Source: a virus
Taxonomy: Duplodnaviria > Heunggongvirae > Uroviricota > Caudoviricetes
Direction: 5' to 3' (one strand)
Length of the DNA stretch: 7,947 nucleotides
IMG/VR virus record: IMGVR_UViG_2713896907_000004
Location: 1-7,947 of that record
A program made the position numbers and the translations under genes. Numbering within the stretch: the stretch's first letter is position 1; each line of letters begins with the position of its first letter. Below, piece by piece: positions 1 through 7,947 of this stretch. Under the pieces are notes generated by a model, which made no database searches, had not been told where the DNA came from, and saw only the letters and a program-made list of their open reading frames with translations.

Positions 1-230
1 CACGGCCTGATATTGCTGTACGGTGGGTTATTCCAGATTGCACCGTGGCTTACCCACTCAGAATTGAGCGCGTCGTCGGCCTCAGTTAGCCAGTGAGCGC
101 ACAGAGCATTTTTGTCGCTCGCAGCTGAATCCAGCCAGAATCCAAACTCAATATCCAGCGCATCAAAAAGCCAGAGCGGCGTTTGCCAGCAGTCCTTGTC
201 GTGTGATGGCGTATTTGATTTGATAGTCAT
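1..230 (-). CDS. dam: Phage DNA N-6-adenine methyltransferase (Dam family), N-terminal part; gene runs off the window start
   Basis: Minus-strand ORF starting at ATG 230, overlapping the ninB TGA stop (ATGA junction). Hand translation: MTIKSNTPSHDKDCWQTPLWLFDALDIEFGFWLDSAASDKNALCAHWLTEADDALNSEWVSHGAIWNNPPYSNIRP, no stop before position 1. NPPY catalytic tetrapeptide and overall N-terminus resemble phage Dam methyltransferases (recalled, not searched). Confidence 0.7.
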   Translation of the reverse strand, partial: MTIKSNTPSHDKDCWQTPLWLFDALDIEFGFWLDSAASDKNALCAHWLTEADDALNSEWVSHGAIWNNPPYSNIRP

Positions 231-673
231 GCAGCCCTACCTTTTCGTTGTGACCATTCATACTCTCGCCAGGAGTCATCACTCCACCGCACGTTGCGCT
301 CTGAGCCGAACCAGAACATGATTTCGATAAGCTCAGTCATGCTGGCCTTCCGCATTTTGCTGGTACGCACGCCAAGCATGGCAACGCCACCGTCGATACC
401 AGGCACACTTCGTTGCTCCAGTTTTTTGGTCTTAAGCCACAGGGCAGTGAACAGGTCTTTCCAGTCTTCCGGCGCCAGCCGTTGACCATGCCATAGCACC
501 TGACGCGAAACATCGTTCAGCATCGGCCACATACGGTCATTCTGCGCTTTGCTGCGCTTGGGTTCTTTAACGTGGACTTCGTGGGGTGACTTGTCGTCGA
601 TGGGTAGTGAGAGAATGGCGTCTATGGCGTTATTTCTGATTGCTTCGTTGCGAAGCAGAAAGGTTTGCTTCAT
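227..673 (-). CDS. ninB: NinB-like recombination protein (lambda NinB/Orf family)
   Basis: Part of track ORF 227..775(-). Start placed at internal Met 35 (ATG at 673), preceded by GGAG. Product MKQTFLLRNEAI...WHGQRLAPEDWKDLFTALW...RNVRWSDDSWREYEWSQRKGRAA recalls lambda NinB in length and in the DVSRQV.WHG and WSD motifs. Confidence 0.85.
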   Translation of the reverse strand: MKQTFLLRNEAIRNNAIDAILSLPIDDKSPHEVHVKEPKRSKAQNDRMWPMLNDVSRQVLWHGQRLAPEDWKDLFTALWLKTKKLEQRSVPGIDGGVAMLGVRTSKMRKASMTELIEIMFWFGSERNVRWSDDSWREYEWSQRKGRAA

Positions 674-866
674 CTCCTGCTCTCCGGTTCCATTTTTCAG
701 CCGCCGCAGCAACTGATGGTGCCCATGCCCCCCTGGCTTCACAGAGGTCACATTCTGCATAGCCCCACACATCAATATTTATTCCGGCCTCACCCCACAG
801 ACGACCATTACCGCCGCAAAACGGACATTCTTTTAGCTTTGGCTGGGTTAATGATAGGTCGCTCAT
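630..866 (-). CDS. lar: Lar-family restriction alleviation protein (zinc-ribbon CPFCGG type)
   Basis: Internal start of track ORF 630..1073(-) at Met 70 (ATG at 866), preceded by AAGGAG at about 5 nt. Product MSDLSLTQPKLKECPFCGGNGRLW...ECDLCEARGAWAPSVAAAAEKWNRRAGDE has the CPFCGG ... C..C ... AxxxWNRR pattern of the Lar family. 3' end overlaps the ninB start by 44 nt in another frame. Confidence 0.7.
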   Translation of the reverse strand: MSDLSLTQPKLKECPFCGGNGRLWGEAGINIDVWGYAECDLCEARGAWAPSVAAAAEKWNRRAGDEANLSASQRSNQK

Positions 867-876
867 GCTCACTCCT

Positions 877-1092
877 TCACTTAAAATCCAGACTCCGGAT
901 AATTCTGTTGCGCTGAAACTCATTGTTGAGTTTGAACAACCGTCGAAGAACACGGTCACGCGGATAGCGTCGTGCGGCAGGTGAATGCTCATACAACTCA
1001 TCAAGCGGCAAACTTGACGATGAACGATACCGATACCAACGCACCAACTCTTCACGAAAATTAGCCCTGACAAGCTCAGCTATCGTACTCAT
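877..1092 (-). CDS. Hypothetical Arg-rich small protein (71 aa), first gene after the tR2-like terminator
   Basis: Track ORF 877..1092(-). GGAGGA about 8 nt upstream of the ATG at 1092. Its TGA stop lies inside the lar RBS. No recognisable family. Confidence 0.55.
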   Translation of the reverse strand: MSTIAELVRANFREELVRWYRYRSSSSLPLDELYEHSPAARRYPRDRVLRRLFKLNNEFQRNRIIRSLDFK

Positions 1093-1120
1093 TTCTTAAA
1101 TCCTCCAATTACTCTCCCCC

Positions 1121-1152
1121 AAATAAAAAGGCCTGCGATTACCAGCAGGCCT
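1121..1152 (-). terminator. Rho-independent terminator after the helicase gene (tR2-equivalent position)
   Basis: Minus-strand RNA reads AGGCCUGC-ugguaauc-GCAGGCCU followed by UUUUAUUU. Perfect 8-bp GC-rich stem (1129-1136 / 1145-1152) with the T-tract at 1121-1128. Sits about 28 nt downstream of the helicase stop. Confidence 0.65.
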
Positions 1153-1180
1153 GTTATTAGCTCAGTGATGTAGATGGTCA

Positions 1181-2617
1181 TCAGAATCCTCCTTTCTTCT
1201 TGGACTGCGGTTCCTCGCGTTCACGGCGGCGCATTTCAGCAGACTGTTGGTCTGTGTCATAAATAGCGCCATTTGCCTGTATGCAATACACCGTGCCGGT
1301 ATTGCCATGACGATTGAGGCGAAGGATTAGTTCGGTTTCACCAGGAGGAACGCTGTCATCAAAAGCACCTTCACGATGGATCCCCACCCAATAATCGCAA
1401 TCCTGTTCAATCTGCCCTGTATCTCGTGAGTCACTTGGTAATGGGCGTTTATTGGTTCGGCTTTCCAGTGCGCGGTTAAGCTGTGTCAGAAGCACAACAA
1501 CGCAATCAAGCTCTTTGGCAAGGTTCTTCAGTCCTTTGGTGATCATGCCGTAAGCAAGGTCGTTGCGATCGGCCTTTTCAGCGGTCATTAGTGTCAGGTA
1601 ATCGACCAGAATCATGCCAACACATCCTTTTTCTCGCTTGATTCGACGGCTTTCGCTGACGATTTGAGCCAGAGATAATCCCGGCGTGTCGTCGATGTAA
1701 AGCAGGTCGATTTCACTCAAGCGATTGGCTGTCTCGATCGCCCTGTTGAAGTCACCATCGTAATCACCCTGATAGCCGTCATCAGCGTCATTTGTCGCCG
1801 GAAGGTAAAAAATATTCGGGTTCACACCTGACTTCTGCCCTACCAGTTTTTCCAGTATCTGGTCACCTGGCATTTCAAGGCTGAACATCAGAGCGGGCTT
1901 TTTCTCATGCACTGCGCAGTTGATTGCCATCTGGCTGTATAGCGTCGTTTTCCCCATCTTAGGGCGAGCGCCAATGACAAACAGAGAGCCTTTCACCAGA
2001 CCTTTCGGTGACAGCATCCTGTCCAGCGATGGGATCCCTGTGCTCATTCCTCGTTGTTCGCCTGACGGGTCAAATCGCTTCTCAAGGTCGCTAACCCAGT
2101 CTTCCATGACCTCACCAAATGAGCGAAGGCCGCGACGCGATCCGGTTTTTGCATGGTCTGTCAGTTGCGTGAAAATCGACTGAATAGCTTCGTACTTCTG
2201 CGTTGCAGTCATTCCGTTGCGGGAATAGAGCAATTCCGTCGCTTCAGTCATGCGGTTGATGGCGTAGCGTTCCATTGCGGTTTCGCGAACCTGCATTGCA
2301 TAAGCAACGATGTTTGCTGCGCTTGGCGTGTTCTTTGCGATCTCAGCGATATAAGCAAAACCGCCAACAGACGCCGTTAACGATTTACGCTCCAGTTCAT
2401 CGAAAAGCGTCAGGCCATCTACTGGCTTTTGCTCACGGTGCATTCTGGTTATTTCTTCGAAAATGATTTTGTGTGGCCGGCTGTAAAATGAATCAGGCTT
2501 CAGCATCGCCAGAACCTTCTGGACGCGCTCACTGCTGTCATCATCCAGAAGCAATCCACCAATCACCGCCTGCTCTGCCTCGATGCTATGGGGCGGCGCA
2601 TAAAAATTATCGGTCAT
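1181..2617 (-). CDS. dnaB: DnaB-family replicative DNA helicase (phage-encoded, P22 gene 12-like)
   Basis: Track ORF 1181..2632(-). Start chosen at ATG 2617 ([25 protein letters not shown], preceded by GAGGGTG); the track Met at 2632 is the alternative. Classic DnaB N-terminus and Walker A GARPKMGKTT. Start overlaps the upstream gene's stop (ATGACCGATAA). Confidence 0.9.
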   Translation of the reverse strand: MTDNFYAPPHSIEAEQAVIGGLLLDDDSSERVQKVLAMLKPDSFYSRPHKIIFEEITRMHREQKPVDGLTLFDELERKSLTASVGGFAYIAEIAKNTPSAANIVAYAMQVRETAMERYAINRMTEATELLYSRNGMTATQKYEAIQSIFTQLTDHAKTGSRRGLRSFGEVMEDWVSDLEKRFDPSGEQRGMSTGIPSLDRMLSPKGLVKGSLFVIGARPKMGKTTLYSQMAINCAVHEKKPALMFSLEMPGDQILEKLVGQKSGVNPNIFYLPATNDADDGYQGDYDGDFNRAIETANRLSEIDLLYIDDTPGLSLAQIVSESRRIKREKGCVGMILVDYLTLMTAEKADRNDLAYGMITKGLKNLAKELDCVVVLLTQLNRALESRTNKRPLPSDSRDTGQIEQDCDYWVGIHREGAFDDSVPPGETELILRLNRHGNTGTVYCIQANGAIYDTDQQSAEMRRREREEPQSKKKGGF

Positions 2618-3506
2618 CGTGTTCACCCTCACGAACTTTCAGGTAGGTATTGTCGTTAAGCAGGAAATCAAATCCCTTTTTGTGCCAGACGGTTCCGCGC
2701 TGATGGTTTGGGCGCTCTTCGAACATCCATCGGCAATTTTCGCCTACGTAGCTCAAATAATTTCTCCAGTCCTGCATCGTGAACCCATGCCCGTCAAGCT
2801 GGCGGGTTATCACTCCGGCTTTGCGCCAGAACGTTCGGATCTGGTTTTTACGCTTGTCATTCAGTGCGCGGATTCTTGGCGCTTCAGGAAGGATTTCGTG
2901 GTAAGCATCGACAACATCCTGACAGCTGACGGGAGGTTTTTTCTTGTCAGACTTTTTGTCTGCTGTGGCACTCTCTAATACGTCAGTATTAGAGATAATA
3001 TTATTATATTCTTTATCTGTGGTAATTTGCTGGTAATCTGCTGGTACAGTATTGCTTACAGGCATTGGTATTGCTGGCTTTGAGGTGGTAATTTGCTGGT
3101 AATCTGCTGGTACAAAATTTGACTGATAATCGTCATATTTCTCTACCGAGAAAACTGAGAATTTACCGTGTGAAACCCAGTCAATCATGCCGAGTTTTTT
3201 GAACTTTCTAAGCAGGTACTGAACGCGATCTGGTTTGAGTCCTGTTTCAAACGCCAGAGAGTTTCTACCGCCAAGTAGCTTCCCTCTGCCTACCAGAATT
3301 TCTCCTGCGTCAGTCATTACATACTCAGGCGTATGCTTTGCTTTGAGGATTAAGTGAACCCACAGATGCGCTGCTTCTGCGTCCTTGTAAAACGGCACAT
3401 CCATAATTTTACGGTGCAGCAAGGCATACCCCTTACCGCTGCTTTGATGCGGTTGTTGTAGCCTTCTGGCCTCTCTGGCTTCGGCTAGATTAGATATGTT
3501 ACTCAT
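2607..3506 (-). CDS. Replication initiation protein (lambda O / P22 gp18 analogue)
   Basis: Track ORF 2607..3506(-). AAGGAG 7 nt upstream of the ATG at 3506. N-terminal winged-helix-like region, a central linker carrying the duplicated peptide [10 protein letters not shown], and a C-terminus resembling the conserved phage replication-protein C-terminal domain. Sits immediately upstream of the helicase. Confidence 0.8.
2972..3113. other. Putative origin of replication inside the initiator gene: AT-rich palindrome plus iteron-like direct repeats
   Basis: Two identical 29-bp direct repeats (3019-3047 and 3085-3113, gtggtaatttgctggtaatctgctggtac), each with GCTGGTAAT sub-repeats at about 11-bp spacing. 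Adjacent AT-rich stretch 2972-3016 holds a perfect 10-bp inverted repeat, tctctaatac-gtca-gtattagaga (2972-2995). Layout matches lambda ori inside O. Confidence 0.5.
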
Positions 3507-3645
3507 GACCTTTCTCCTTCTGCATCAGCTTCACTTTTTCCAACTCAGCCCGGAATCGACAAGGCTGCTTGAAGCTGGACAGGAAGCGATCACGTAGTAT
3601 GTGTTTGTGAATTTTGTCCTGGTAAGGACTGAGTTGTTTTGTCAT
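3499..3645 (-). CDS. Small hypothetical protein (48 aa) between cII and the initiator gene
   Basis: Not in the supplied track (too short). Hand translation from ATG 3645: [53 protein letters not shown] 7 nt upstream. Stop overlaps the initiator start (ATGAGTAA). Confidence 0.4.
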
Positions 3646-3654
3646 AATGACTCC

Positions 3655-3731
3655 TGTGGATTGATCCAGTAATTACCTCAGAACTCCATCTGGATTTGTT
3701 CAGAACGCTCGGTTGCCGCCGGGCGTTTTTT
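3655..3731 (+). ncRNA. oop: oop-like antisense RNA candidate (about 77 nt, antisense to the cII 3' end)
   Basis: Plus-strand extended -10 TGtCATAAT at 3640-3648 in the cII/initiator intergenic region, with a strong intrinsic terminator about 77 nt downstream inside the cII 3' end. Geometry as for lambda OOP. Start site is inferred, not observed. Confidence 0.4.
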
Positions 3732-3974
3732 ATTGGTTAGTCCATCAAGCGCATACTTAAAAGCCCTGCTAATCGGACTGATGTCTGATGCCATTCCAAA
3801 AGCACACAGAACCGAAGCAATAAATCTCCAGTCCGTTCTGCTTATCTTCGATTCATGACAGCCAATCATCTTTGCCAGACCGCGCTGGGTAAGCGTTGAC
3901 AGGTTGATAAGTAAATCTGTTTCTGCGCGATCAACGTCGCGCTGTGATAGTTTGCTGTAACTTGTTTGTTCCAT
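3678..3974 (-). CDS. cII: CII transcriptional activator (lambda CII family)
   Basis: Track ORF 3678..3974(-), 98 aa. C-terminal LTNKKRPAATERSEQIQMEF matches the lambda CII C-terminus as recalled. HTH-like ESKISRTDWRF in the middle. Sits between cro and the replication genes. Confidence 0.9.
   Translation of the reverse strand: MEQTSYSKLSQRDVDRAETDLLINLSTLTQRGLAKMIGCHESKISRTDWRFIASVLCAFGMASDISPISRAFKYALDGLTNKKRPAATERSEQIQMEF
3704..3731 (+). terminator. Rho-independent terminator on the strand antisense to cII
   Basis: Stem cgctcgg (3706-3712) / ccgggcg (3719-3725) with one G-U pair, 6-nt loop, extendable by two A-T pairs, followed by TTTTTTATT. Confidence 0.6.
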
Positions 3975-3984
3975 TTCTTACTAT
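3952..3984 (+). promoter_or_regulatory. PRE-like CII-dependent promoter candidate (TTGC-N6-TTGT at the cII start)
   Basis: Plus strand TTGC (3952-3955) - tgtaac - TTGT (3962-3965) overlapping the cII start region, with TACTAT at 3979-3984. Resembles lambda PRE TTGC-N6-TTGC and would point through cro antisense toward cI. Confidence 0.3.
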
Positions 3985-4008
3985 TTCCATAGTTAAATAA
4001 TCACTAAT

Positions 4009-4026
4009 ACTCATCTTTCGATGAGT
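4009..4026 (-). terminator. tR1-position hairpin between nutR and cII
   Basis: Minus-strand RNA ACUCAUC-GAAA-GAUGAGU, a perfect 7-bp stem with GAAA tetraloop, followed by an AU-rich tail AUUAGUGAUUAUUU. Weak intrinsic terminator or processing site. Confidence 0.35.
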
Positions 4027-4038
4027 GCTTAATTAGTT

Positions 4039-4073
4039 ACCGCGTTGTCGGCGGTGCAGATTGATAAAGAGCG
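4039..4073 (-). promoter_or_regulatory. nutR: boxA plus P22-type boxB
   Basis: Minus strand just downstream of the cro stop: boxA-like CGCTCTTTA (plus 4065-4073), then boxB hairpin ACCGCCGACAACGCGGU (plus 4039-4055). Matches the P22 nutR boxB as recalled. Confidence 0.6.
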
Positions 4074-4080
4074 ATGTTAC

Positions 4081-4308
4081 TTATGCAGCCAGAAGGTTCT
4101 TTTTGCTTATTTCAAGCATTTCGCTTGCTTGATATTTGCCACCAGAAATCTCTTCGATTTTTGATGCATATTTCGTTTTCCCAAAAAACTCAGTCTTAGG
4201 GAGGAAGCCGTTTTTAAGCCACTTATAGACAGCCCTTTCGCTAACTCCACAAGCCTTCGCAACTTCAGGGATGCCGACACCTTTAATCGGCTCATCAAGA
4301 TTTTGCAT
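4081..4308 (-). CDS. cro: Cro-like HTH regulator (first gene of the PR operon)
   Basis: Track ORF 4081..4341(-). Start chosen at internal ATG 4308 (MQNLDEPIKGVGIPEVAKACGVSERAVYKWLKNGFLP...), which has AAAAAGGG 8 nt upstream. The track ATG at 4341 falls inside the predicted PR -10. HTH motif present; divergent from cI. Confidence 0.7.
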   Translation of the reverse strand: MQNLDEPIKGVGIPEVAKACGVSERAVYKWLKNGFLPKTEFFGKTKYASKIEEISGGKYQASEMLEISKKNLLAA

Positions 4309-4320
4309 AGGAATACCCTT

Positions 4321-4393
4321 TTTCGTACTTTCAGTACGCATTATGATTGAACTGAAAGTTTTTGCAAGTGCTTTAGTATCGTACTCATGGTTC
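4321..4393. promoter_or_regulatory. OR-like operator/promoter region (PR leftward, PRM rightward)
   Basis: Minus-strand PR: -35 TTGCAA (plus 4362-4367), 16-bp spacer, -10 CATAAT (plus 4340-4345). Operator-like sites: cgtACTttcAGTacg palindrome (4324-4338), gaACTgaaAGTt (4349-4360), weaker taTCGTACtc (4377-4386). Possible PRM -10 TAGTAT (4374-4379) ends 7 nt before the cI ATG, which lacks a Shine-Dalgarno. Confidence 0.5.
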
Positions 4394-5094
4394 AGAATGA
4401 AAAAGTGCGCAAAGAATTCGCCCAGCGGCTAGCGCAAGCCTGTAAAGAAGCTGGTCTTGATGAACATGGTAGGGGGATGGCCATAGCCCGTGCCCTTTCT
4501 CTTTCGTCCAAAGGCGTTAGCAAATGGTTTAATGCTGAGTCTTTACCGCGTCAGGAAAAAATGAATGCGCTTGCGAAATTTCTAAACGTTGATGTTGTTT
4601 GGCTTCAGCACGGCACTTCGTTAAATGGAGCGAATGATGAAGATACTCTTTCATTTGTTGGCAAATTAAAAAAAGGGTTAGTGCGCGTGGTTGGTGAGGC
4701 AATTCTTGGTGTTGATGGTGCCATCGAGATGACCGAAGAGCGCGATGGGTGGCTCAAGATTTATAGCGATGATCCAGATGCCTTTGGTCTTCGTGTGAAA
4801 GGAGACAGCATGTGGCCCAGAATAAAATCAGGAGAATATGTACTCATTGAGCCTAACACCAAAGTATTCCCGGGTGATGAGGTGTTTGTCAGAACCGTTG
4901 AAGGACACAACATGATTAAGGTTCTTGGCTATGACAGAGATGGAGAATACCAATTTACAAGCATTAACCAGGACCACAGGCCTATAACGTTGCCTTATCA
5001 TCAAGTAGCAAAGGTGGAGTATGTGGCTGGTATTCTGAAGCAATCTCGTCATCTGGATGACATCGAGGCAAGGGAGTGGCTGAAAAATTCGTGA
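4387..5094 (+). CDS. cI: CI-like prophage repressor (N-terminal HTH, C-terminal S24 LexA-like peptidase)
   Basis: Track ORF 4387..5094(+), 235 aa. HTH near the N-terminus (GMAIARALSLSSKGVSKWFN). C-terminal GDSMWP serine motif and downstream Lys (NMIKVLG) typical of the S24 autocleavage domain. Divergent from cro with the operator region between. Confidence 0.9.
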   Translation: MVQNEKVRKEFAQRLAQACKEAGLDEHGRGMAIARALSLSSKGVSKWFNAESLPRQEKMNALAKFLNVDVVWLQHGTSLNGANDEDTLSFVGKLKKGLVRVVGEAILGVDGAIEMTEERDGWLKIYSDDPDAFGLRVKGDSMWPRIKSGEYVLIEPNTKVFPGDEVFVRTVEGHNMIKVLGYDRDGEYQFTSINQDHRPITLPYHQVAKVEYVAGILKQSRHLDDIEAREWLKNS

Positions 5095-5170
5095 CTTCAT
5101 CGTCACATAGCTGGTAACCAGTGGCCTGAAGAGACGTTTGGGTGATAGGAATGGATGTTAAGGATTAAGA

Positions 5171-6217
5171 ATGTCAGCGATTGATCAACCTGCGCAATAT
5201 GTTATCAAGTCAGAAGACGACTTTGTATCTTTTGTAACAGAAATGCTCGGAAGGAAGGATATCGACTCAAGCGACTTCACATTCCCTAGCGTAGTTTTCA
5301 GTGGATGGCCAAAGATCAATATTAATGTAAAAGGCGATCCAAATAGATATAATTCTTCATTGACTGCGTCAATGCTTTTTGGTATGGCAGAGCTTACGCA
5401 TGAAATACAAAAAGCATTTACGGTAGTCAGTCACAGCACTCATAATCGGCAGAAGCTAAAAGATGCAGAGAAAGGTTTGCTGGATATTGTCTACCGAATA
5501 AGCGAAGGCTCAAGCCAAGCGGATGGTGACTCAGATCCGATTGTAAACGGAGTGGTGACAGTGTTAACTCAAGCGATAGGCAAAATGACAGGAAGGCAAG
5601 CACTATGCGCCGTCGCCGCTATCGTCTTAGCTGCCAGCACGGTAGGCTATAAGTGGATCAATGAGTACTACGAAACACAGCGACATGACCAAGATTCTCA
5701 GGTGCAATTGGTGGAAAAAAGCACCAAAGCGGTAAACGAAGCACAAGACAATGTGCTCAAGTTGTTGATTAGCGGTCAAACAAACATTAGCAGAGAGGTT
5801 CTGGCTCACGGCGAGGATGGTAAAAGCAAGTTGCTTAAAAAGCTTGCTCAAGACTCGTCAGTTGAGAAGGTAACAATTGGTCAGAGAGTGGTAAATAGAG
5901 AACAGTTGAATACCTTAAACCAAAGGCAATCAATTGATCGAAAAAAGGAAACCAGAAGAGATAACTTTTATGTCACGGGCGTTCGTCGCTCGGGAGAAAC
6001 AAATCAGGACATAAATATTGACGTCACAAGGGTTTCAAATGGTGAATCTTTCACCATAAAAACCTCAGCCGACATAACATCTACTGATGAGCTTCTTGAG
6101 TTTTTGAATGCTGTAGCCAAAGAATCAACTGTTGAAATTTCATACCTAGAGGTTGTAGAAAATGGACACATTTCAACAGGACAATTGATAAATATATTCC
6201 CCAGCGAACCAGAGTGA
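5171..6217 (+). CDS. Hypothetical membrane protein (348 aa) in the rexAB-equivalent slot; candidate exclusion/defence moron
   Basis: Track ORF 5171..6217(+). AAGGA 6 nt upstream of the ATG. Same strand as cI, 76 bp downstream, with no terminator between. Visibly AT-richer than neighbours. One central hydrophobic segment (ALCAVAAIVLAASTVGY) and a charged Q/K/E-rich C-terminal half. No family recognised. Terminator follows. Confidence 0.8.
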   Translation: MSAIDQPAQYVIKSEDDFVSFVTEMLGRKDIDSSDFTFPSVVFSGWPKININVKGDPNRYNSSLTASMLFGMAELTHEIQKAFTVVSHSTHNRQKLKDAEKGLLDIVYRISEGSSQADGDSDPIVNGVVTVLTQAIGKMTGRQALCAVAAIVLAASTVGYKWINEYYETQRHDQDSQVQLVEKSTKAVNEAQDNVLKLLISGQTNISREVLAHGEDGKSKLLKKLAQDSSVEKVTIGQRVVNREQLNTLNQRQSIDRKKETRRDNFYVTGVRRSGETNQDINIDVTRVSNGESFTIKTSADITSTDELLEFLNAVAKESTVEISYLEVVENGHISTGQLINIFPSEPE

Positions 6218-6225
6218 TGCACTCC

Positions 6226-6254
6226 AAACCCGGCCTCAGCGCCGGGTTTTCTTT
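6226..6254 (+). terminator. Rho-independent terminator after the 348-aa gene
   Basis: Stem aaacccggc (6226-6234) / gccgggttt (6241-6249) with loop ctcagc, followed by TTTTCTTT (6247-6254). Begins 9 nt after the TGA stop. Confidence 0.7.
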
Positions 6255-6354
6255 GCCTCACGTTCGCCCTCCCATATTTAATAGCCGCAAATGTGGTAAA
6301 CCGCGAACCAACTCACCAGCAATACCCCCTCCAACTACAGACCAATCTGCAGCA

Positions 6355-6382
6355 TTTACAAAAATAAATTTCCTTATATATC
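6355..6382 (+). promoter_or_regulatory. Near-consensus sigma70-like promoter candidate in the AT-rich spacer upstream of OL
   Basis: -35 TTTACA (6355-6360), 16-bp spacer, -10 TATATA (6377-6382), plus strand, pointing toward nutL and N. Confidence 0.35.
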
Positions 6383-6418
6383 AAAATTATATCTCGCTGC
6401 ATTAATAAATCACAAAAA

Positions 6419-6464
6419 TTTCGTACCAATAGTTCTTGATAATATCGAACTATTGGTTCATTAT
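6419..6464 (+). promoter_or_regulatory. OL/PL-like region: operator motifs co-linear with OR plus a PL candidate
   Basis: TTTCGTACcaatAGTtC (6419-6435) and GAACTattgGTT (6447-6458) match the OR motifs TTTCGTACtttcAGTaC and GAACTgaaaGTT in the same order with near-identical spacing. 11-bp perfect inverted repeat accaatagttc / gaactattggt (6425-6435 / 6447-6457). PL candidate: -35 TTGATA (6436-6441), 17-bp spacer, -10 CATTAT (6459-6464). Confidence 0.45.
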
Positions 6465-6510
6465 TGTCACATCAGCAGGACGCTGGAAGCCAAACGGAAC
6501 AGATTGGCAG

Positions 6511-6544
6511 GCTCTTTAACTTCGATGGGGCGCTGACAAAGCGC
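6511..6544 (+). promoter_or_regulatory. nutL: boxA plus P22-type boxB
   Basis: boxA-like GCTCTTTAAC (6511-6520), then boxB hairpin GCGCTGACAAAGCGC (6530-6544), which is the P22 nutL boxB as recalled. Upstream of the N-like gene. Confidence 0.7.
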
Positions 6545-6572
6545 AAACAGATACCAAACGAGATGGGTTTGG

Positions 6573-6655
6573 CGGTGTGTAGCTCAGCAGGTAGAGCGGA
6601 TTCGTTGGCTAAGCCGTGGAATCGCGTCACCAGTTCAAGTATGGTCACACCACCA
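6573..6655 (+). other. tRNA-like element, non-canonical (degenerate tRNA remnant or structured N-leader RNA)
   Basis: Strong D-arm signature TA-GCTC-AGCAGGTA-GAGC. T-arm-like ACCAG-TTCAAGT-ATGGT with a G53/A61 mismatch. Acceptor cggtgtg/cacacca pairs 6 of 7. The anticodon stem gattc/gaatc encloses a 15-nt loop rather than 7. CCA follows at 6653-6655. Confidence 0.3.
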
Positions 6656-6681
6656 AAGCCATTTCACATGGAGAAAAGAAA

Positions 6682-6801
6682 ATGCTGGAAATTATCACCA
6701 ACCCAATTCTCGGTGGGGCAATCATCACTTTCGCAATCGGCATCGGATTCACTATCTGGTCTGAAGTAGATGACTGGATGTGGGAGCGCAAAAACAAATA
6801 A
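6682..6801 (+). CDS. Small hydrophobic peptide (39 aa, single predicted TM helix) in the N leader
   Basis: ATG at 6682 with GGAG 8 nt upstream. Product MLEIITNPILGGAIITFAIGIGFTIWSEVDDWMWERKNK: hydrophobic core then a charged Trp-rich tail. Inside the longer track ORF 6616..6801. Lies between nutL and N. Confidence 0.4.
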   Translation: MLEIITNPILGGAIITFAIGIGFTIWSEVDDWMWERKNK

Positions 6802-6841
6802 TAATCGACACACATTCATGTGTGTCTTCACGGAGGTCATC

Positions 6842-7150
6842 ATGACGGTTATCGTATACGGAAAATCAACATTTGCAGGAAATGCCAAAACTCGCCGTCA
6901 TGAGCGGCGCAGAAAGCTGGCTATCGAGCGTGATTCCATCTGCAACATCATCGATTCGATCTTCGGCACAGACAGTGAGGAAGCTGTTCAGGAAGAACCG
7001 AGAAAGCGTTTAAGCCTTTCTGAAAAAGCAATATCACTCGGCATCATTAGTAAATCAAATACAGATGCGAATGGCGGAAGCGTTTGCCTGCCCGAAGTTG
7101 CACTGTATGCTGCTGGTTACAGGTCAATGAAATCAATTACGGCGAGATAG
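6842..7150 (+). CDS. N: N-like transcription antiterminator (P22 gene 24 type, arginine-rich motif)
   Basis: Internal start of track ORF 6770..7150 at Met 25 (ATG 6842), with GGAGG 5 nt upstream. N-terminus MTVIVYGKSTFAGNAKTRRHERRRKLAIERD carries the arginine-rich boxB-binding motif of P22 N as recalled. Cognate boxB present in both nutL and nutR. Confidence 0.85.
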   Translation: MTVIVYGKSTFAGNAKTRRHERRRKLAIERDSICNIIDSIFGTDSEEAVQEEPRKRLSLSEKAISLGIISKSNTDANGGSVCLPEVALYAAGYRSMKSITAR

Positions 7151-7152
7151 AA

Positions 7153-7419
7153 ATGACTAGCAAACAAGTATCATATAAATGCTATTGCCCTTTATGTGGA
7201 AGAAAATTCAGCGCCAAGGCAGCATGGAAGCATATCAATGATTATCATCCAAAAGCATCAGAACGTGAGTTGATGATGATAAGAGATGTAAAACGAGAAA
7301 AAATTTCTTTCGCAACAAAGCCACTAAACGCCAACAAAAACGCAATATTGTATCAAATGCATCGTTCAAGTGGTCCAGATTATTCTGGAGGGCTTCCATC
7401 TCTTGGAAAGAAAAAATAA
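7153..7419 (+). CDS. Hypothetical small protein with a Cys2-His-type zinc-binding motif (89 aa)
   Basis: Internal start of track ORF 7084..7419 at Met 24 (ATG 7153), immediately after the N stop. Weak RBS (GAGATAGAA). Motif CYCPLCGRKF...HINDYH. No family recognised. Confidence 0.5.
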   Translation: MTSKQVSYKCYCPLCGRKFSAKAAWKHINDYHPKASERELMMIRDVKREKISFATKPLNANKNAILYQMHRSSGPDYSGGLPSLGKKK

Positions 7420-7552
7420 CCACGCTCATGCTGGTTTTTAATGACATAAATAACCCTATTTACTACCGCAAGCCACGCAGTGAAATGGGTGTGACTTGTG
7501 TTGGTCGCCAGAAAATGAAATTAGGCAGCAAACCACTTATTTGAGGTGATAT

Positions 7553-7639
7553 ATGGAAGAAGAATTTGAAGAGTTCGAAGAGCATCCGCAGGATGTGATG
7601 GAACAATACCAGGACTATCCGTATGACTACGACTATTGA
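7553..7639 (+). CDS. Very small acidic peptide (28 aa), possibly coupled to the next ORF
   Basis: ATG 7553 with GAGGTGA 4 nt upstream. Hand translation MEEEFEEFEEHPQDVMEQYQDYPYDYDY. Overlaps the start of the next ORF by 17 nt. Could be coding or only a coupling leader. Confidence 0.3.
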   Translation: MEEEFEEFEEHPQDVMEQYQDYPYDYDY

Positions 7640-7823
7640 TAAAAATCAATGGTGTGGACAATTCAAACGATGCAATGGATGCAAGCTGCAATCGGAATGC
7701 ATGGTTAAGCCTGAAGAAATGTTTCCTGTAATGGAAGATGGGAAATATGTCGATAAATGGGCAATACGAACTACGGCAATGATTGCCAGAGAACTTGGTA
7801 AACAGAAAAACAAGGCTGCCTGA
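7623..7823 (+). CDS. Hypothetical Cys-rich small protein (66 aa, CxxxxxCxxCxxxxxC)
   Basis: Track ORF 7623..7823(+). Start overlaps the preceding acidic ORF. Four Cys in CGQFKRCNGCKLQSEC suggest a zinc ribbon. Followed by a terminator. Confidence 0.5.
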   Translation: MTTTIDKNQWCGQFKRCNGCKLQSECMVKPEEMFPVMEDGKYVDKWAIRTTAMIARELGKQKNKAA

Positions 7824-7842
7824 TGGTGGCCTTTATTTTTGG
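7813..7842 (+). terminator. Rho-independent terminator after the N-downstream small genes
   Basis: Stem aggctgcc (7813-7820) / ggtggcct (7825-7832) with two G-U pairs, loop tgat (contains the TGA stop), followed by TTATTTTTGG. Confidence 0.5.
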
Positions 7843-7947
7843 CATAAACAACAGAATAAACACAGCACTGTGTATTCATTCCAACGAGTGAATACACGGA
7901 GCAATGTCGCTCGTAACCAAACAGGAGCCGACTTGTTCTGATTATTG

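Follow-up and report, generated by a model that had tools for sequence, protein, structure and literature searches.

Introduction

Salmonella phage L and phage P22 provide the published precedent for an antitermination module of the P22 type, composed of the N homologue gp24 and the nutL and nutR sites, in company with different immunity regions. The two phages differ in immC, while the N-termini of their gp24 proteins are 96% identical; their nutL and nutR boxBs are apparently identical and the two proteins are functionally interchangeable, with the C-terminus of phage L gp24 being unrelated to that of P22 (PMC8022706). The locus described here lies in a 7.9-kb stretch of viral DNA (IMG/VR record IMGVR_UViG_2713896907_000004, positions 1 to 7,947; hereafter the window), which very probably represents the early control region of a temperate phage or prophage of the lambdoid group, in which an immunity cassette of the 933W type is bracketed by an N-dependent antitermination system of the P22 type. 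As we read it, the cassette would comprise cro, OR, cI, OL/PL and a passenger gene of 348 amino acids (aa), with nutR placed just 3' of cro, and nutL and N placed 3' of PL.

A P22-type N with its nut sites next to a foreign immunity is an established, common and documented mosaic and is not new, given the phage L/P22 precedent and the presence of the same combination in already sequenced phages and prophages. Many Shiga toxin 2a (Stx2a)-converting phages (accessions LC6160xx, for example LC616031), phage 1H12 and prophages such as that of E. coli E423 (NZ_CM173464) combine 933W-type cI and cro with P22-type nutR, nutL and N arginine-rich motif (ARM). The E423 sequence is 96.7% identical to the window over positions 863-5147 and 97.9% identical over 6838-7558. 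These relatives differ from the window in the interior of the hairpin that precedes N, which is not tRNA-shaped in them, in having no small open reading frame (ORF) before N and in carrying other passenger genes after cI; the N of the Stx2a phages differs in addition by its lambda-type C-terminus. Phage L differs from the window in possessing its own immC, not that of 933W, and in infecting Salmonella.

The N protein and its nut sites

The N gene of the window (positions of all features are given in Table 1) is an intact ORF and has GGAGG as its Shine-Dalgarno sequence; the window also contains a PL-like promoter. Near the N-terminus of the protein, the 18 residues of the ARM, GNAKTRRHERRRKLAIER, are identical to those of P22 gp24. 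Over residues 1-42 the two proteins share 40 of 42 positions, differing at positions 5 and 32 only, and divergence sets in after residue 42, leaving 70 identical residues of 102 (69%, E-value 2e-47) over the whole length. The profile PF25694 N_peptide, described as "Transcriptional antitermination N peptide", is matched along positions 1-100 with 126.5 bits against a cut-off of 27.9. An N protein that is 100% identical to that of the window was found in the isolated phage phiKp_30 and in 14 IMG/VR loci. When the PDB was searched by sequence, with N or the ARM peptide as query, the P22 N-peptide/boxB entry was not among the matches. From the sequence and from the reported interchangeability of the gp24 proteins of L and P22 (PMC8022706), we infer that N binds boxB RNA and suppresses termination together with Nus factors.

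The N protein is a chimera. Residues 1-67 are common to the N of the Stx2a phages, which ends in a lambda-like C-terminus, whereas the C-terminus of the window N is similar to those of P22 and 933W. An orphan fragment stranded 3' of a zinc-finger-like ORF encodes INNPIYYRKPRSEMGVTCVGRQKMKLGSKPLI followed by a stop codon, which is the lambda-type C-terminus of the Stx2a-phage N proteins. The stranding of this fragment indicates that the C-terminal domain of N was replaced by an insertion.

Both nut sites are of the P22 type as well. A boxA and the boxB GCGCUGACAAAGCGC lie between PL and N, and a boxA and the boxB CCGCCGACAACGCGG lie between cro and cII, the counterpart of P22 c1. The reference boxBs were taken directly from the annotated nutL and nutR features of P22 (NC_002371), and both 15-mers of the window are identical to them. 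Each of the two occurs a single time in the window, the boxA sequences are near-identical to those of P22, the spacing between boxA and boxB equals the P22 spacing at both sites, and the cores, counted by eye, agree with P22 at 35 of 38 positions (nutL) and 35 of 37 (nutR). For the boxA of nutR, the alignment took in P22, 933W, E423, phiKp_30 and FWSEC0005. The order of the elements, nutR-cro followed by PL-nutL-leader hairpin-N, is also that of P22. A first-pass annotation of the window, made from the sequence alone, had matched the N peptide and both boxBs to those of P22; the alignments bear this out, without a single difference in the ARM or in either boxB.

Since a boxB measures only 15 nt and ARMs are low in complexity, a short resemblance of this kind could be imagined to arise by chance or convergence. 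The probability of such an origin is close to nil. In 200 dinucleotide-preserving shuffles there were 0 matches to either 15-mer, even with up to one mismatch allowed, and the homology runs well past the motifs, over 103 nt at nutL (6470-6572, 87% identity), 129 nt at the 5' end of N (86%) and the complete N protein. The shuffles and the extended homology at nutL and N refute a coincidental match.

Immunity genes and module boundaries

The immunity region, in contrast to N and nut, is that of the Shiga-toxin phage 933W (NC_000924). The repressor and Cro, which the first-pass annotation had described as unlike P22 c2 and cro, are 99.6% and 100% identical to 933W cI and Cro, respectively. The identity at OR spans the annotated oR1-oR3, pR and pM of 933W, the OL/PL core is near-identical to that of 933W and includes a PL promoter of the form TTGATA-17-CATTAT at 6436-6464, and the terminator tM of 933W has a homologue in the window. 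By its repressor, its Cro and its OR and OL operators the locus has 933W immunity, and its repressor and Cro are not those of P22 immC. The cI protein shares 25% identity with P22 C2 across 156 aa, a similarity that points to shared LexA/S24-family ancestry only; the match between the two Cro proteins is limited to a 15-residue helix-turn-helix (HTH) stretch, and the comparison of CII with P22 C1 gave no match.

Outside the immunity genes the window departs from 933W in several ways. The N of 933W is of the H-19B type and 127 aa long, and its nutR has a different boxA and the boxB TCGCTGACAAAGCGA. Between cI and PL, 933W carries stk and three other ORFs, where the window has the 348-aa ORF, and its replication genes are of the lambda O/P type, where the window has O-like and DnaB-like genes. 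The CII protein is mostly of the 933W/HK022 type, with 20 residues at its end, LTNKKRPAATERSEQIQMEF, that are identical to lambda in both protein and DNA, so that the lambda-type C-terminus noted in the first-pass annotation is confirmed at both levels. The lambda identity extends over 3678-3745 (minus strand) and covers the last 20 cII codons together with the downstream intergenic DNA, forming a further mosaic junction. By its position, this stretch is taken to be the oop region, with a terminator at 3702-3729 (plus strand).

In the alignments, the boundaries of the module are sharp on both sides. On the left, OL/PL is 933W-like as far as CATCAGCAGGACGC (about 6470-6483, at the PL transcript start), a sequence common to all the phages aligned, after which the DNA becomes P22-like. 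On the right, it is 933W-like through the cro stop codon, P22-like in nutR from boxA onwards and 933W-like again just before cII; at the corresponding position 933W has a different nutR.

The state of the genes bears on the idea that the module is a decaying, non-functional remnant in a defective prophage. The early ORFs cII, cro, cI, N, O-like and DnaB-like are all full length, the viable phage 933W has a nearly identical repressor, Cro and operators, and N is shared unchanged with the isolated phage and the 14 IMG/VR loci named above. A remnant of this kind is quite improbable, even though it would be in keeping with the orphan N C-terminus at 7446-7544, with a T-stem mismatch in the tRNA-like copy described below, which has no counterpart in 8 other variants, and with the finding that no complete E. 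coli genome covers at least 80% of the window.

Co-inheritance of N, nutL and nutR

To place the window among its relatives, 80 IMG/VR loci were gathered with its N as query and 21 with the tRNA-like motif, and reference phages were added. In the 105 loci that encode the P22-type ARM, the exact nutL boxB lies within 700 nt upstream in 103 and the exact nutR boxB is present in 96; six of the nine loci without it have less than 2.1 kb of sequence upstream of N. Between the nut sites of the ARM-bearing loci at least seven unrelated types of Cro/cI were found, of which the 933W type is the second commonest (30/96), with lambda Cro in 9 loci and P22's own type in 2. Since the nut boxBs co-occur with so many Cro/cI types, N, nutL and nutR travel together around interchangeable immunity cassettes. 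In spite of a biased sample, independent assortment of the N-nutL-nutR set and the immunity is evident from the survey, which together with the junctions supports the earlier proposal of a modular mosaic in which N and nut were co-inherited on both sides of an exchanged immunity cassette.

Several points weigh against taking this pattern as the inheritance of a matched and working specificity. The loci of the survey were collected by means of the window N, which biases the sample. The nutL boxB of 933W is the same 15-mer and the ARM of its N is related; for this reason, a difference in specificity between the module that was brought in and the one that was replaced is unproven. The co-inheritance may in part reflect physical linkage and not functional necessity, and the P22-type and 933W (H-19B-type) N systems may overlap in specificity. 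Moreover, N as a whole is only 69% identical to gp24, and its diverged C-terminal half, by analogy with lambda N, probably covers the contacts with RNA polymerase. Finally, a 160-bp insertion with a small ORF parts the leader hairpin from N, and it could change the regulation of N.

Taken further, the P22-type and the 933W/H-19B-type N-nut systems would be cross-compatible, and the mosaic would have arisen by neutral recombination at conserved junctions with no selection for cognate pairing. This account, which we regard as rather unlikely, draws on the identical nutL boxB and on the nutR boxB TCGCTGACAAAGCGA with the same GACAAA loop (the two 933W sites lie at 615-643 and 4128-4142 in L007), and on the 933W ARM FKGNSRSRRRERLKAKA, which resembles FAGNAKTRRHERRRKLA. 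It is at odds with the nutR sites, which are of the P22 CCGCCGACAAC type in every examined P22-ARM locus with enough sequence, the other nutR type being that of 933W, with its H-19B-type N, and of FWSEC0005, whose N is a C-terminal pseudogene fragment only and was not assigned to a type. It also sits poorly with the left side of the cassette, where the likeness to P22 spans the whole nutL segment and not boxB only.

In the reading preferred here, N depends on its cognate nut RNAs for its action and would for that reason have been retained together with nutL and nutR as a set, and the cassette of repressor and operators enclosed by the nut sites would have been exchanged at short conserved junctions. 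By homology with P22 and lambda, inactivation of the 933W-type repressor would set off PL and PR, and each nascent transcript would carry a boxA, as the NusB/S10 site, and a boxB hairpin, which the arginine-rich helix of N (residues 13-30) would bind. N would then join the Nus factors, including NusA and NusG, on RNA polymerase, allowing readthrough of downstream terminators. Delayed-early expression would thereby reach ral and the recombination genes in the leftward direction, and cII, the O-like and DnaB-like replication genes and the nin region in the rightward direction.

The N leader and its tRNA-shaped interior

In lambda, the hairpin of the N leader is an RNase III site that modulates the autoregulation and translation of N. 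For RNase III cleavage in lambda and its effect on N translation, PMC5725501 cites Wilson et al. (1997, 2002). The window has a long hairpin at the same place, between nutL and the N Shine-Dalgarno sequence, and its long closing stem is homologous to that of lambda (GCTTTGGGGTGTGTG...CACACACCACCAAAGC in lambda, GGTTTGGCGGTGTG...CACACCACCAAAGCC in the window), with an RNase III site that is putative. The same closing stem occurs in the leaders of lambda, P22, the E423 type and phi80. After it the sequence A-CCA-AAG follows across leaders, the 3' flank of phi80 itself being CGCCAAAG. The interior of the window hairpin is unrelated to those of lambda and P22. On the same flanks, at least seven unrelated interiors were observed, namely those of lambda, P22, E423/Stx2 phage, phi80, MS15236 and L104, and the tRNA-shaped one. 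On comparison, the interior of these leaders looks like an RNA "cargo" that is exchanged in its own right. The phi80-type interior was also seen in a P22-type leader (L068) and in the Nord122 prophage, which has another boxB.

Separating the leader hairpin from N is a hydrophobic small ORF of 39 aa, inserted together with a hairpin at 6807-6826. The ORF sits where other leaders have the start codon of N, and the N of the window has a new Shine-Dalgarno sequence. By alignment, the ORF is absent from the leaders of E423, phiKp_30, 1H12, Stx2 phage and P22. It was found in E. coli AR_0058, L024/L044, L028/L045, MS15236 and Nord122 (83% identity).

At its apex, the leader hairpin carries a tRNA-shaped element in which a small hairpin of 15 nt replaces the 7-nt anticodon loop. 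This replacement is present in 9/9 variants, and for this reason the element is tRNA-shaped and cannot decode. ARAGORN at default settings and two Rfam scans called no RNA gene in the window, and the tRNA model of Rfam was not matched even at E<=10, while ARAGORN with relaxed thresholds draws a cloverleaf for the element. In E. coli AR_0058 the same element is annotated by PGAP as "tRNA-OTHER", and relatives that differ by a few bases match the Rfam tRNA model (RF00005) with 38.1 bits (L019) and 34.8 bits (L013), above the gathering score of 29. In the window copy, A6641 mismatches the T-stem at 53:61, where all 8 other variants have a G53:C61 pair. Across the variants the D-arm, the T-loop and the acceptor stem are invariant, and the T-stem has one compensatory change of A:U to G:C. 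By our own inspection, the nucleotides that build the tRNA elbow are kept (U8, A14, G18G19, G15:C48, T54-psi55-C56 and A58). The cloverleaf is the unconstrained minimum free energy (MFE) structure in 4/9 variants. As for covariation, double-sided changes are limited to two pairs, a number that does not clearly exceed the shuffle controls; formal support of this kind is weak because the nine variants are 94% identical.

The element occurs in the leaders of three N/nut types: the P22 type, a lambda-like type (L013) and a third type (L021). It is rare, having been found in 2 of 5426 complete E. coli genomes, in 21 IMG/VR contigs and in Salmonella phage P6. There were 0 hits to the tRNA-like 25-mer among the GTDB species representatives, a degenerate scan of viral sequences returned the same 21 contigs, and a metagenome scan returned unrelated tRNAs only. 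Recent capture of a host tRNA was rejected, as no E. coli tRNA gene matches the element by blastn. A separate tRNA-like gene was noted in the metagenome contig Ga0105164_10033377 (L121, 2079-2160); it is unrelated, has the same D-arm and T-arm sequences with an over-long anticodon arm, and stands in a context completely different from the N leader. In the literature searched, no description of a tRNA-like element in N leaders was found, and this leader cargo is the sole feature of the interval that might be new.

A tentative proposal, which we consider possible and by no means probable, is that the apical leader is an independently assorting slot for structured RNA, and that RNase III, followed by RNase P, may cut the tRNA-shaped cargo out of the first PL transcript. 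Early in infection the excised RNA might act as a stable mimic or decoy of tRNA; alternatively, it might be a processing signal by which the N mRNA is uncoupled from nutL. Both roles are possible. M3 RNA, which is an RNase P substrate of phi80, might conceivably originate in the leader cargo of that phage.

Layout of the window and other features

The window shows a lambdoid phage early region in the orientation opposite to the lambda map. The minus strand carries ninB, a Lar-like gene, the DnaB-like helicase, the O-like initiator, DUF2740, cII, nutR and cro; the plus strand carries cI, the 348-aa ORF, a terminator, OL/PL, nutL, the leader hairpin, the 39-aa ORF, N, the zinc-finger-like ORF and ral. 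The terminator of the cI transcript was recognised by alignment to 933W, and a simple terminator scan of the window did not list it. Inside the O-like replication gene there is a perfect 30-bp direct repeat (containing ggtaatttgctggtaatctgctggtaca) at 3019-3048 and 3085-3114, which encodes a repeated 10-residue peptide and presumably represents the iterons of the origin.

The 348-aa ORF occupies the rex/stk position 3' of cI. It has a central hydrophobic stretch, and Pfam and PADLOC gave no match for it. In phage phi458, a copy with 98.9% identity follows a cI other than that of the window; the PhiR12 phages carry homologues with about 25% identity, and a match in the mEp332 immunity region is partial, with 34% identity along 19% of the query. 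It is a passenger of the immunity cassette and lies outside the N-nut module.

Table 1. Positions of the features of the window, and of the leader hairpins compared with that of the window (the latter in the coordinates of their own loci).
Feature	Position	Strand	Remarks
DnaB-like helicase	1181-2632	-	
O-like initiator	2607-3506	-	with presumed iterons
cII, 98 aa	3678..3974	-	Pfam Phage_CII, 119 bits; 87% identity to 933W CII
nutR boxB CCGCCGACAACGCGG	4040..4054	-	identical to P22 nutR boxB
nutR boxA CGCTCTTTATC	4063..4073	-	P22 counterpart CGCTCTTTACC; directly after cro stop codon
cro, 75 aa	4081..4308	-	75/75 identical to 933W Cro
OR/PR/PRM, 933W type	4309..4386	not assigned	108/111 identical to 933W
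cI repressor, 235 aa	4387..5094	+	HTH and S24 peptidase; 234/235 identical to 933W cI
348-aa ORF	5171..6217	+	phrog_6191 (unknown function)
PRM (cI) transcript terminator	6229..6254	+	aligned to annotated 933W tM
OL/PL, 933W type	6400..6483	+	left mosaic junction within conserved CATCAGCAGGACGC
nutL boxA GGCTCTTTAAC	6510..6520	+	P22 counterpart CGCTCTTTAAC
nutL boxB GCGCTGACAAAGCGC	6530..6544	+	identical to P22 and 933W nutL boxB
N-leader long hairpin	6560..6665	+	MFE -44.7 kcal/mol, z -5.0
tRNA-shaped element	6573..6654	+	apical part of leader hairpin
39-aa ORF MLEIITNPILGGAIITFAIGIGFTIWSEVDDWMWERKNK	6682..6801	+	phrog_7482
N antiterminator, 102 aa	6842..7150	+	P22-type ARM at residues 13-30
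Zinc-finger-like ORF	7153-7419	+	
Orphan N C-terminus fragment	7446-7544	+	lambda type
Leader hairpin, lambda (L010)	372-512		
Leader hairpin, P22 (L003)	1175-1300		
Leader hairpin, phi80 (L115)	6825-6975		
Leader hairpin, L113	2365-2520		
Leader hairpin, L114	2378-2530		
Leader hairpins, L104/L105			

Conclusion

In this locus, an RNA-binding factor acting in trans and two cis sites that lie 2.5 kb apart, on either side of the immunity genes, have stayed matched despite the swap of the cassette between them. It is a clean textbook case of lambdoid modular evolution, and it leaves existing knowledge unchanged. Its value lies in annotation, as a prophage with 933W immunity and without the N of 933W is relevant to the prediction of early expression in the relatives of Stx phages. 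The tRNA-shaped RNA, in turn, belongs to the ~180 nt with which the PL transcript opens and is enclosed in the hairpin homologous to the RNase III hairpin of lambda, a place taken by unrelated structured RNAs in other phages. If these RNAs were processed into products with a function of their own, this would give the N leader, despite its long history of study, a second role that has escaped notice.

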